A stretch of DNA of 64,000 bases from an uncultured delta proteobacterium. Its GTDB lineage: Bacteria; Desulfobacterota; Binatia; UBA9968. The notes under the pieces were generated by a model, which had not been told where the DNA came from, did no database searches, and was given only the letters and a program-made list of their open reading frames with translations. The stretch is taken from the NCBI GenBank assembly GCA_963727625.1, contig CAVSHR010000012.1, forward strand, positions 597,603 through 661,602. The letters run 5' to 3'. This document shows, one piece after another, positions 45,951 to 49,581 of the stretch. The translations under genes were made by a program, and so were the position numbers. How positions within the stretch are numbered: position 1 is the first letter of the stretch; each line of letters starts with the position of its first letter.

Positions 45951-46091
45951 GTAGGAGGGGTGGAGCCCTTCGGCTTTGCGCAGGACGGGCTTCGCGACAC
46001 CCCATCGTATTTTTTCTTGCGCCTTTGACTTGTGTGCGATTGACGCGGAGCGGAACGATGGGTTTCGGCGCTGCGCCTCTACCCATCCTAC
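45951..46091. repeat. REP doublet (REPIN-like) element, copy 1, left flank of DGR
   Basis: GTAGG...CCTAC inverted ends, 141 bp; homologous over its whole length to 49441-49581; a further REP half begins at ~46128. Confidence 0.75.
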
Positions 46092-46196: not shown

Positions 46197-47714
46197 TCAC
46201 TCTCTCCCCGGCTTGCCCAATCGACTGGGAGGAATGCGGCCATTCGCCGTTTCCAACCGCCAGGCTGGCAACCGCATCTGGACACCCGTGAGATAGGATT
46301 TGCTCTCCAGGATTGCGGCAACGGACCGTCCGGCCCTGAGCAACTTTCGAAGATAGCGAGCCCTCAGGCGGACCGGGAAGCCGTAGCGGCCACCCCTCGG
46401 GTTCGCTCCGATCGGCGCGAGGTCAAGCAGGTGCGCGGCGTCGTCATCGCGCTCGTCGTAGAATTCGAAGAAGCATCCCACCTGAAATAACACCACGTCG
46501 CCGCGAAAGCGCCAGCGGTAATAGCGATATTGCTGCGCCGTGCGGCGCAACCAGCGGGGCGCTTTGTAGGTGCGCGTGAGTTTACGTTCGTCGAGATCAA
46601 ACTTGAAGTACTGGCCGAGCCAAGTTTCTCGCTCCCAGAGCGAGCGCCAGAGGTCGTAAGTGTTGGCCATCTTCGAATGGCCGAGATAAGAGCAAAGCGT
46701 CGCAAACAGCCTATCGAGTAGTTCTTCATCGAAGCGGTAGCGCCGCCAGTAGCGGCCCTCGCGAACCAGCTCTGCTTTGTATTGCCTTAGTCTGAGTTTG
46801 ATGTTGCTGACCACGCGCCGGCGCCGCAAGAGGTAATCCCGCCGCGCGATGTAACCAACGAAGTCCACCCCGTCGCTCACCGGCCTGAGCCGCGTGCGCT
46901 TGGCGTTGAGTTCGAGCCGGAGATTCTCCCGCAGATACTCGGCGATCCGGCCCTGCCAGTCGACTAGCTTTTCTCGCTCCGCCGCCAGCAGCACAAAGTC
47001 GTCGCAGTAACGCAGATAGTGGCGGCATTTGAGGGTGTGCTTGACGAAATGATCGAAGCCGGTGAGATACACGTTGGCAAAGAACTGGCTGTTGAGATTA
47101 CCGATCGGCAGTCCCTTGTTCTTCGGCGCGCCGAACAGGGTTTTGTGCGGCGGTACCTGGGCGCGCATGCCCGCCGGTCCTTTGTAGACATAGTCCTCGG
47201 TGCAGTCGTGGTAGATCAGCACTTTCGCAAGCCAGAGCGCGTCCGTATCGGCGCATCTCACCTCCACTTGCGCGAAGAGAATATCCCGGTCGATGCTCAT
47301 GAAGTAGTTCTGAATATCGAGCTGGAGATACCAAGCCCGGCGCGTGCCGTTGACGCTGACCTGGCGGATGAACGTTTGCAGTCTCCGCACCGCCGCGTGT
47401 ACGCCTCGACCGTGGCGGCAGGCGTAGGAGTCGTGGATGAACAGCGGCTCCCAGATGCGCTCCAGGTAATCGACCAGTACGTGATGAACGACACGGTCGC
47501 GGAAGTCGGCGGCGAAGATTTCCCGGAGCTTGGGACCCGGCGCGAAAAAGCAGACGGAACGAGAGGGGATATAAGTGTGGTTGACAAGCGCTTCGCGTAA
47601 GGCGAGCAGGTTTTCCTCCTGGCGCGCCTCGAAGCGCAGGGCGTTTAAGGTATTTCGTTTGTTGCGCCGGCAAAGATGATATTGCCGGTAGAGATTCTCA
47701 AACGAAAATAGCAA
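46197..47714 (-). CDS. DGR reverse transcriptase with C-terminal MutS domain I-like extension
   Basis: K.REIFAADFRDRVVHH, SYACR.G.G.H, LDIQNYF.SI, GLPIGNLNSQ (DGR-type GxxxSQ), YLRYCDDF, GVDFVGY; tail VLFQVGCFFEFY...GFP...YLRKLLRAG.SVA. Confidence 0.95.
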   Translation of the reverse strand: MLFSFENLYRQYHLCRRNKRNTLNALRFEARQEENLLALREALVNHTYIPSRSVCFFAPGPKLREIFAADFRDRVVHHVLVDYLERIWEPLFIHDSYACRHGRGVHAAVRRLQTFIRQVSVNGTRRAWYLQLDIQNYFMSIDRDILFAQVEVRCADTDALWLAKVLIYHDCTEDYVYKGPAGMRAQVPPHKTLFGAPKNKGLPIGNLNSQFFANVYLTGFDHFVKHTLKCRHYLRYCDDFVLLAAEREKLVDWQGRIAEYLRENLRLELNAKRTRLRPVSDGVDFVGYIARRDYLLRRRRVVSNIKLRLRQYKAELVREGRYWRRYRFDEELLDRLFATLCSYLGHSKMANTYDLWRSLWERETWLGQYFKFDLDERKLTRTYKAPRWLRRTAQQYRYYRWRFRGDVVLFQVGCFFEFYDERDDDAAHLLDLAPIGANPRGGRYGFPVRLRARYLRKLLRAGRSVAAILESKSYLTGVQMRLPAWRLETANGRIPPSRLGKPGRE

Positions 47715-47727
47715 GGGCGATCATTAT

Positions 47728-47854
47728 CCAGGGCGGACGGCCCAACCGTAGTTGTTGTTGTCCTTGTTGTCGTTGTCCTGGTTGCCATTGTCGAAGTTGA
47801 AGTCCCACGCGTTGTTGGTATTGAACTCCGTACCCGACCAGTAGTCGGACTGAA
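47728..47854 (-). ncRNA. DGR template repeat (TR)
   Basis: 127-bp AAC/GAC-rich repeat between avd and RT; ungapped match to 48612-48738 with 18 of 21 mismatches at TR adenines (manual alignment). Confidence 0.95.
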
Positions 47855-48020: not shown

Positions 48021-48410
48021 TTAAGCGCCTGGCGTCGCCGGGTGATTCTGGCCCCCCTGCGCACGACCACCGACACTCCGTATCCACCCCTCGTTCTGTC
48101 TGCTTATTGAAACGATTTCCTGGACCACGAATTGATAGGACTTGAAACTCTTAAACGCTCGCACTTCCTTGGCCAGACGCACCAGAATCATTAGCTCCTC
48201 AAGCTGCTCGCTGAGTTTTATTAGCGACGCCGACTTATCGCGCATGGAGTTGGCCTTGACGATCAAACCGACGACTTCGCGGCTTTTATTGCGCAGCTCA
48301 GTGCCGAGCGTGTACTTGTGATAACGCGAAAATCCCGCCACCACCTTCTCGAAGTGCACCGCCGTGTCCATTGCCTGCTTGTAGATCGGCAAATGCTCGT
48401 AACGGGCCAT
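48021..48410 (-). CDS. avd: Avd-like four-helix-bundle accessory protein
   Basis: Small basic protein, LPIYK....F....KYTLG.ELR, L.RLAK, C-terminal GW; lies directly upstream of TR. Confidence 0.85.
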   Translation of the reverse strand: MARYEHLPIYKQAMDTAVHFEKVVAGFSRYHKYTLGTELRNKSREVVGLIVKANSMRDKSASLIKLSEQLEELMILVRLAKEVRAFKSFKSYQFVVQEIVSISRQNEGWIRSVGGRAQGGQNHPATPGA

Positions 48411-48517: not shown

Positions 48518-49178
48518 TCACCTACCCCGCCACCGGCGTGCCAACCGCAACCCCAACAGCCCCATTCCCAACAACACCACCGACCCCGGCTCCGGCACGC
48601 TCGCCACATCCCCAGGGCGGACGGCCCAACCGTAGAAGTTGAAGTCCTTGAGGACGGGGCCCTGGAGGCCATTGAAGAAGCCGAAGTACCACGCGAAGTT
48701 GGTATTGAACTCCGTACCCGACCAGTAGAAGGACTGAATGTTGGTAAACGGTCCTTGACTGCCCGTCAGGTTGTCAACCGGACTTCCGCCAAGGTTGTAA
48801 TAGTAATTATACGCCATCTCATTGTCGCGGCAGGCCGTCTCATCGGCACCTCCAGAGCCGTCGCATGGGAAATCAGATCGTCAGCGTGGTAATCGGCCCC
48901 GCCCCCGCTGTCACGCTCGCATACGGCAGCCGCCAGTCGTCAAAACCCTGATAATCCAGATTCGCCGCCCAGGTGTTGGCATCGTCCCAAGTCATTGCCC
49001 CGGTTGCGGAGTTGACGCAGTTGTTCAGCGCCACGCAGAGATTGGCATCCGCCACCCAGGTGATGTTCAGCACGTCGTCGTAGATCAATCCGCTTCCCCG
49101 GTCGATCAGCGTCGCCTGAGCCTTGCCCGCCATCAACAACCCTGCCATCAATCCAAGCGCCAGTATGGTTTTCTTCAT
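48518..49178 (-). pseudogene. DGR target: secreted DUF1566/C-type-lectin-fold protein with PEP-CTERM anchor, split by a single frameshift near 48875-48884
   Basis: Signal peptide; LIDRG.GLIYD..LNITW..DAN, MTW..A..W, DDWRLP; second frame CRDNEM...YYNLG, YWSGTE...AW.F.F..G.Q, WAVRPG, VPEPGS+TM+RRWR. Confidence 0.85.
48612..48738 (-). repeat. DGR variable repeat (VR)
   Basis: Encodes QSFYWSGTEFNTNFAWYFGFFNGLQGPVLKDFNFYGWAVRP versus TR QSDYWSGTEFNTNNAWDFNFDNGNQDNDNKDNNNYGWAVRP. Confidence 0.95.
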
Positions 49179-49440: not shown

Positions 49441-49581
49441 GTAGGATGGGCGGAGCCCTTCGGCTTTGCTCAGGACAGGCAAAGCAATACCCATCGTTTT
49501 TTCTCTTACGCCATTGAGTGATGTGAAATTGATTGGACCGCGGAACGATGGGTTTCGGTGCAACGCCCCAACCCGTGCTAC
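49441..49581. repeat. REP doublet (REPIN-like) element, copy 2, right flank of DGR
   Basis: GTAGG...GCTAC, 141 bp, same orientation as 45951-46091. Confidence 0.75.

Follow-up and report, generated by a model that had tools for sequence, protein, structure and literature searches.

A diversity-generating retroelement reverse transcriptase that continues into a MutS domain I on the chromosome of an uncultured Binatia bacterium

Introduction

The question raised by the locus described here is why the reverse transcriptase (RT) of a diversity-generating retroelement (DGR) should end in a domain related to that with which the repair protein MutS recognises mismatched DNA. The gene concerned lies in a 64,000-nucleotide stretch of DNA (the window) from an uncultured delta proteobacterium (GTDB lineage Bacteria; Desulfobacterota; Binatia; UBA9968), which corresponds to positions 597,603 to 661,602 of the forward strand of contig CAVSHR010000012.1 in GenBank assembly GCA_963727625.1; all positions given below are those of the window. 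The minus strand between 46,197 and 49,178 is occupied by a compact DGR cassette consisting of a target gene, the accessory gene Avd, a template repeat (TR) and the RT gene. An initial annotation made from the letters alone had proposed that the RT was fused to a MutS-like mismatch-recognition module, and that this module might shield or guide the mismatched heteroduplex formed between the cDNA and the variable repeat (VR) of the target gene. On the analysis as a whole it is very probable that the locus holds a chromosomal DGR RT which continues into a MutS domain I and is a member of a fused lineage already known, the step of mismatch shielding being the conjectural part of that explanation.

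The reverse transcriptase and its C-terminal extension

Translation of the RT gene gave exactly the 505-residue product and C-terminus quoted in the initial annotation, which had also remarked that the protein was longer than a typical DGR RT, and the solved chain of the Bordetella-phage enzyme indeed has 328 residues. Pfam searches located RVT_1 at residues 62-289 and MutS_I at residues 393-468 (E 7.1e-5), and at E <= 1 found no other family in the 505-residue open reading frame (ORF), the connector, lever/clamp and ATPase domains (II-V) of MutS included. The residues Y236-C237-D238-D239 were invariant in an alignment of RT homologues. A model of the full-length protein (predicted local distance difference test, pLDDT, 87.8; predicted template modelling score, pTM, 0.73) found its best match among PDB structures in the Bordetella-phage DGR RT 8ub7_A (E 4.2e-22, 28% identity, template modelling score 0.89 over the 328-residue target), the five top matches all being states of that enzyme, followed by group II intron RTs. 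The modelled fold thereby identifies the product as an intact RT of the DGR type.

No stop codon separates the RT and MutS_I parts, and the module forms the C-terminus of the 505-residue RT. The architecture is that of a DGR RT carrying an extension of about 170 residues, made up of a linker (residues 342-392), a MutS domain I (residues 393-489) and a disordered end; the interval of positions 46197-46560 that had been singled out in the initial annotation corresponds to residues ~386-505, that is, to the MutS_I part. The linker was conserved in all 27 rows of the alignment and modelled with a pLDDT of 83-90, and a search of 48,161 representative PDB chains returned no match covering this stretch well.

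Assignment of the tail to MutS domain I was supported by profile, alignment and fold. The PF01624 match, obtained with a search that the initial annotation had itself proposed, scored 23.4 bits against a curated cut-off of 20.6 (26.5 bits in a six-frame search of the genome), while two NCBIfam MutS equivalogs reached residues 393-467 at scores far under their full-length cut-offs, as expected because only a single domain is present. A single-sequence phmmer comparison of the tail with PDB sequences was marginal (E 0.055), with MutS accounting for 13 of the 15 matches, aligned at domain I. A profile built from six fused homologues matched residues 17-95 of Taq MutS at E 4.6e-10, E. coli MutS at E 2.6e-5 and MSH6 at E 3.7e-3, and placed the family motif G-[C/R]-F-[F/Y]-E in register with the G-D-F-Y-E of MutS, in agreement with the earlier suggestion that the tail holds a counterpart of the mismatch-binding Phe-X-Glu.

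Residues 342-505 were modelled with AlphaFold from 27 sequences, with a pLDDT of 86.4 and a pTM of 0.76. Foldseek returned 46 PDB chains at E <= 1e-3 for this model and, among the matches listed, all were MutS, MSH6 or MSH3. The same conclusion was reached in a second structure search independent of Foldseek, conducted on the 48,161 representative chains referred to above: Taq MutS (1fw6_A residues 12-126) was recovered with a Z score of 13.0 and a root-mean-square deviation of 2.8 A over 104 aligned residues, MSH3 with a Z score of 12.2 and MSH6 with Z scores of 11.6 and 11.0, whereas the first fold other than MutS, the N-terminal half of XPB, reached only 4.5. The tail of the RT is a true MutS domain I, both homologous and of the same fold, as the initial annotation had claimed.

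The likeness to repair proteins is confined to this one domain. The fold is shared with domain I of MutS and MSH6 (Taq MutS 1ewq/1fw6, E. coli MutS 1e3m) at Z scores of 11-13, and the G-x-aromatic-x-E motif stands in register with theirs, but MutS additionally possesses connector, core, clamp and ATPase domains, and the RT tail has domain I only; therefore neither formation of a sliding clamp nor recruitment of MutL is possible. When compared with the host's own MutS, the tail exhibited merely 34% identity over 77 residues.

Reality and distribution of the fusion

Since stand-alone MutS-like (MSL) genes occur in other DGRs (Wu et al. 2018), and since a 1-nt frameshift in the adjoining target gene indicates that the assembly contains indels, it might be argued that the fusion is an artefact, created when a frameshift or an error of assembly brought an RT gene and a separate MSL gene into one frame. 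This is extremely improbable and was rejected on three grounds. All five homologues recovered by a word-index search with residues 330-505 carried both Pfam domains, were 42-74% identical to the query in that region, and aligned across the RT/tail junction without gaps; both domains were present within one ORF at 22 of 35 independent genome loci; and the linker between them is conserved. The fusion thus withstood the objection of a sequencing error that the initial annotation had raised against itself.

The 35 loci came from a pattern scan in which each of 185,579 species was represented by one genome and, the pattern being narrow, form a lower bound. Besides the 22 with RVT_1 and MutS_I in one ORF, 11 had MutS_I only, one had RVT_1 only and one had neither. 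Homology to the N-terminal part of the RT was nevertheless detected by tblastn directly upstream of the tail at 31 of the 35, which suggests that most of the loci with MutS_I only are to be explained by contig ends, frameshifts or internal deletions and not by free genes. Avd homology was present upstream at 22 of the 35. The hosts were Desulfobacterota (many of them Desulfobacterales), Nitrospirota including Ca. Magnetobacterium casense, Planctomycetota, Gammaproteobacteria (Thiohalocapsa, Thiothrix and Methylococcales) and a few others. The RT belongs to a conserved lineage of DGR RTs with a MutS_I fusion, and the fusion is common among related elements.

A wider search, in which the tail profile was run against 1.84 billion cluster representatives, matched 8,061 proteins at E <= 1e-3, ordinary MutS necessarily among them; 447 remained at E <= 1e-10 and 61 at E <= 1e-30. 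Within the best 150 of these matches, 44 had RVT_1 (E <= 1e-3), 90 had MutS_I without RVT_1 and 16 had no Pfam match. Many of the short matches begin within the thumb and probably represent fragments of genes; around 15 proteins of 98-130 residues, by way of contrast, begin where the MutS_I part does and are possible free-standing Msl proteins, although some of these too may be fragments. No homologue of the tail was found by tblastn (E <= 1e-3) in 50,697 phage or 72,556 plasmid records.

Several unusual arrangements were recorded alongside these results. In recurrent 'mini' forms (loci L029:5455-6375 and L033:5716-6372; proteins P0028, P0123, P0136 and P0151) the N-terminal motifs of the RT ran straight into the MutS_I tail, the catalytic core (YxDD) having been deleted, and these may be either decayed copies or a separate short product. 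In the 249-residue protein P0062 a MutS_I tail of the RT-tail family accompanied an RNase_T exonuclease domain, and in P0116 MutS_I was joined to an OTCase domain; judged from their translations, either may be a real fusion or a gene-calling chimera. In a Desulfobacteraceae metagenome-assembled genome a fused-RT cassette was present in several copies (loci L004, L005 and L006, all on one contig); of the four matches to the tail in this genome, three lay in RT frames truncated at the 5' end and containing an in-frame TGA. Thiohalocapsa marina (L010) carried two identical copies 5.9 kb apart.

Relation to described systems

The initial annotation had implied that the fusion was new, but it has been in print since 2018, and the window adds one more intact example of the kind. 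Three related DGR RTs with a C-terminal MutS_I motif were described by Wu et al. (2018, Nucleic Acids Res 46:11, PMC5758913), whose Table S1 includes rows for Ca. Magnetobacterium bavaricum (FP929063.1), an uncultured Desulfobacterium (FR695874.1) and a bioreactor metagenome (AMWB01060384.1). In those rows the targets are given as DUF1566, class CLec2, for each of the three, and two have the gene order TG-AVD-TR-RT-TG, TG denoting the target gene. Compared by published description, the RT of the window shares with them an extension, given there as ~150 residues, that contains MutS_I, together with a target of the DUF1566 (Lcl_C) type and, as in two of the three, the order TG-AVD-TR-RT. By that description and the Table S1 rows it belongs to the same fused lineage, although their cassettes have two target genes and that of the window has one, which is frameshifted and ends in a PEP-CTERM anchor.

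Stand-alone MSL genes, which the initial annotation had correctly reported for some DGRs, were noted in 16 of 372 elements in the same account (PMC5758913), and MSL is listed among DGR accessory proteins in a 2021 review (PMC8632793). In the available text of a recent preprint, Msl is recorded for three Bacteroides DGRs, Bfr, Bth and Bun (bioRxiv 10.1101/2024.11.15.621889). Like the tail in the window, the stand-alone protein (Architecture D of Wu et al. 2018; Legionella and Bacteroides DGRs) is a small homologue of the MutS mismatch domain in an Avd-containing DGR; as described for Architecture D, however, it is a separate ORF of 112-283 residues, whereas the module in the window is covalently joined to the RT. 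A 2024 PNAS paper on the DGRs of multicellular bacteria (PMC10907252) makes no mention of MutS, DUF1566 or PEP-CTERM.

With the BPP-1 DGR (bRT-Avd, 8ub7) the element has in common the core fold of the RT, Avd, a TR/VR pair and adenine-biased mismatches. It differs in that the BPP-1 bRT, a chain of 328 residues, has no MutS-like tail, and in that the BPP-1 element resides in a phage while that of the window is chromosomal.

Constraint on the tail and its Phe-X-Glu motif

The motif was assessed in 153 aligned domains taken from the 150 best library matches to the tail profile. The glycine was kept in 147 and the glutamate in 144, the aromatic position was phenylalanine in 89 and tyrosine in 52, and G-x-[F/Y]-x-E as a whole was retained in ~95%. 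In MutS, as a review of its structure and mechanism recounts, Phe36 stacks on the mismatched base and Glu38 hydrogen-bonds to it, discrimination is abolished in F36A and E38Q, and MSH2 and MSH3 are described as being without the motif (PMC3848065). Its absence from those two proteins indicates that the fold does not need the motif, and the retention observed here therefore argues for a role in base contact.

Ratios of nonsynonymous to synonymous substitution rates (dN/dS) were calculated for seven locus pairs, of which only L008/L010, both from Thiohalocapsa, was informative, the L004/L005/L006 copies being too similar and four pairs having saturated dS. For the informative pair dN/dS was 0.11 in the RT; the tail gave 0.14 over its whole length and 0.07 within its MutS_I part, figures that are rough given the high dS (1.2-1.8). 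Judged from this one pair, the tail is under purifying selection, and it is because of this selection that a vestigial tail is considered unlikely.

A possible role in surviving mismatch repair

An adenine-mutagenised cDNA would pair with the VR to give a densely mismatched heteroduplex, to which the RT-tethered MutS domain I could bind; being unable to signal to MutL, the tail would then compete locally with the host MutS, and the new sequence might in consequence escape an all-or-nothing reversal by mismatch repair. That the tail is a tethered, non-signalling mismatch binder which protects the cDNA/VR heteroduplex from host MutS is put forward tentatively, as the favoured reading, although one that falls short of an even chance. 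The broader proposition, that it serves as a cis-acting device against mismatch repair through which DGR-written sequence survives in hosts proficient in MutS and MutL, is a little more doubtful still. The shielding or guiding of the heteroduplex envisaged in the initial annotation accordingly stands as plausible, the binding of DNA by the tail being a prediction from its motif and fold.

Circumstantial support comes from work on other DGRs. In the Bacteroides preprint, VR mutagenesis is reported to have risen 5- to 10-fold on deletion of mutS while the pattern of mutations stayed as it was, and the authors took this to mean that the heteroduplex is repaired in an all-or-nothing manner (bioRxiv 10.1101/2024.11.15.621889). 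Engineered DGR systems in E. coli have to suppress mismatch repair; in one of them a dominant-negative MutL is co-expressed, with MutS-like homologues cited as the reason (bioRxiv 10.64898/2026.07.21.739853). The genome that holds the window encodes a canonical MutS (a 902-residue frame on contig C4) and MutL, and MutS was likewise present in nine of ten other fusion-bearing genomes checked.

A number of considerations weigh against the shielding proposal. The presence of MutS in the hosts is uninformative, because control genomes also scored 11 of 14. Each RT supplies one domain, whereas an event involves some 20 mismatches, of which MutS should need to recognise only one. Most of the contacts that MutS makes with DNA are, as summarised in the review, to the backbone and come from other domains, both subunits surrounding the DNA (PMC3848065), and an isolated domain I may therefore bind weakly. 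At the aromatic position itself tyrosine replaces phenylalanine in 52 of the 153 domains. The Bordetella-phage DGR functions although its RT lacks a domain of this sort and, by the account of Wu et al. (2018, PMC5758913), does not need MutS. The element of the window is represented by one genome copy, the target gene of which is frameshifted (vide infra), and it may be idle at present. Literature searches, moreover, found no paper in which a DGR MutS-like tail or a stand-alone Msl had been tested.

The alternative that survives best, although it is on balance rather unlikely, is that the tail acts during cDNA synthesis, contacting the emerging RNA/cDNA duplex, in which many of the template adenines would be mispaired, and helping the RT to hold or extend a heavily mismatched product. 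The domain follows the thumb via a conserved and confidently modelled linker, adenines are dense in the TR (37 in 127 nt), and purifying selection on the tail is the same as that on the RT core, all of which would accord with a synthetic role. By the review's description, however, MutS domain I reads DNA/DNA mismatches from the minor groove (PMC3848065), whereas the geometry of an RNA/DNA duplex differs, and RTs without a tail, such as the 328-residue Bordetella-phage enzyme, carry out adenine mutagenesis unaided.

It is considerably less probable that the tail is a protein-protein decoy or adaptor which engages host MutS, MutL or the replisome, and so blocks repair or brings the RT-cDNA complex to replication forks. 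The host does possess both MutS and MutL, and in E. coli DGR editing is reported to depend on the orientation of the target with respect to replication (PMC12875486; bioRxiv 10.1101/2025.08.18.670894, each in its available part), but the strong conservation of the DNA-contacting G-x-[F/Y]-x-E points to contact with nucleic acid. Binding of the MutS N-terminus to the beta clamp, which would bear on this reading, was confirmed neither by literature search nor by the available part of the review (PMC3848065) and was given little weight. The remaining probability falls to a function of a kind not yet thought of.

The fused RT lineage offers a handle on two questions, by what route DGR cDNA enters its target and by what means it then survives mismatch repair. 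If the proposed shielding of the heteroduplex is correct, these DGRs would have taken over part of the same machinery by which they are held in check, and transfer of the tail could be used to make DGRs more efficient in strains with functional repair.

The cassette and its features

The principal features of the cassette and its surroundings are collected in Table 1.

Table 1. Positions in the window of the DGR cassette, its parts and the flanking repeats.
Feature	Position	Strand	Description
DGR reverse transcriptase gene	46197..47714	-	505 aa, TTG start; MutS domain I tail fused
RT catalytic core	46848..47531	-	residues 62-289, YCDD included; Pfam RVT_1 E 3.6e-18
End of thumb and conserved linker	46539..46691	-	residues 342-392; helices and beta-hairpin predicted ahead of MutS_I fold
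MutS domain I-like module	46248..46538	-	residues 393-489; Pfam PF01624, profile match, fold match
Phe-X-Glu motif	46464..46472	-	F415-F416-E417 in Q-V-G-C-F-F-E-F-Y; aligned with G-D-F-Y-E of solved MutS chains
Template repeat (TR)	47728..47854	-	127 nt, 37 adenines, 9 AAC; RT gene directly after
Avd accessory gene	48021..48410	-	129 aa; Pfam bAvd 45.6 bits (cut-off 40)
Variable repeat (VR)	48612..48738	-	3' end of target gene; 83% identity to TR
Target gene	48518..49178	-	signal peptide, Lcl_C (DUF1566)-type domain, PEP-CTERM anchor
Left direct repeat	45951..46091	+	~141 nt, repeat families D2-D4
Right direct repeat	49441..49581	+	~141 nt; 3,490 nt from left copy

The locus is a DGR by virtue of its DGR-type RT, its adenine-biased TR/VR pair and the Avd gene that stands beside TR and RT, the product of which was also matched by NCBIfam DivGenRetAVD at E 4.8e-13, though under the cut-off of 80 set for that family. 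Over their 127 nt the TR and VR differ at 21 sites, 18 of them at TR adenines. The other three are G>T differences (TR 47846, 47804 and 47792 against VR 48730, 48688 and 48676), each at the first base of a GAC codon of the TR; they may be adenine changes of the usual kind, provided that these codons still read AAC at the last writing of the VR and that the TR has drifted since.

The target gene is split by a 1-nt frameshift near 48876, revealed by three-frame translation, into ORFs 48873..49178 and 48518..48817. Partial Lcl_C matches were recorded on both pieces, together with a PEP-CTERM match at 27.7 bits against a Pfam cut-off of 20.7. Both halves are otherwise intact, and the gene is a single frame in the relatives L008 and L031; the frameshift is due either to recent inactivation or to an error of assembly.

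At five of the surveyed loci (L009, L011, L012, L014 and L016), and in the protein P0075, the TR frame was open, gave an Lcl_C match and was in frame with the RT, so that an ORF caller would predict a TR-RT-MutS_I polyprotein. Such a frame is probably incidental, a consequence of the descent of the TR from coding sequence by copying.

Insertion of the cassette

The cassette lies between a gene for a substrate-binding protein on the left and an LLM-class oxidoreductase-like gene on the right. Around the orthologue of the right neighbour at nine loci of the same genus no RT, Avd or target homology was detected; at six of the nine the orthologue of the left neighbour stood ~90-1,310 nt away, as against 3,685 nt in the window. 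A search of the 30 other genomes of the genus likewise recovered the RT tail from none of them (E <= 1e-8; completeness 60-100%). Its absence from these loci and genomes points to the cassette being a recent insertion of ~3.5 kb in this lineage. A discrete insertion of this size, flanked by direct repeats, bears on the manner in which chromosomal DGRs spread.

The two repeats are 78-83% identical and are the only full-length copies in the genome, while the gap between the flanking genes in the closest relative contained one weakly similar copy (71% over 94 nt). They could be the footprint of integration via recombination at a short shared sequence. Identification of the repeat as an ordinary high-copy repetitive extragenic palindromic (REP) element was rejected, the full 141 nt being present only at the borders of the cassette; a palindromic part of ~36 nt was the sole portion found in multiple copies in the genome and the genus.

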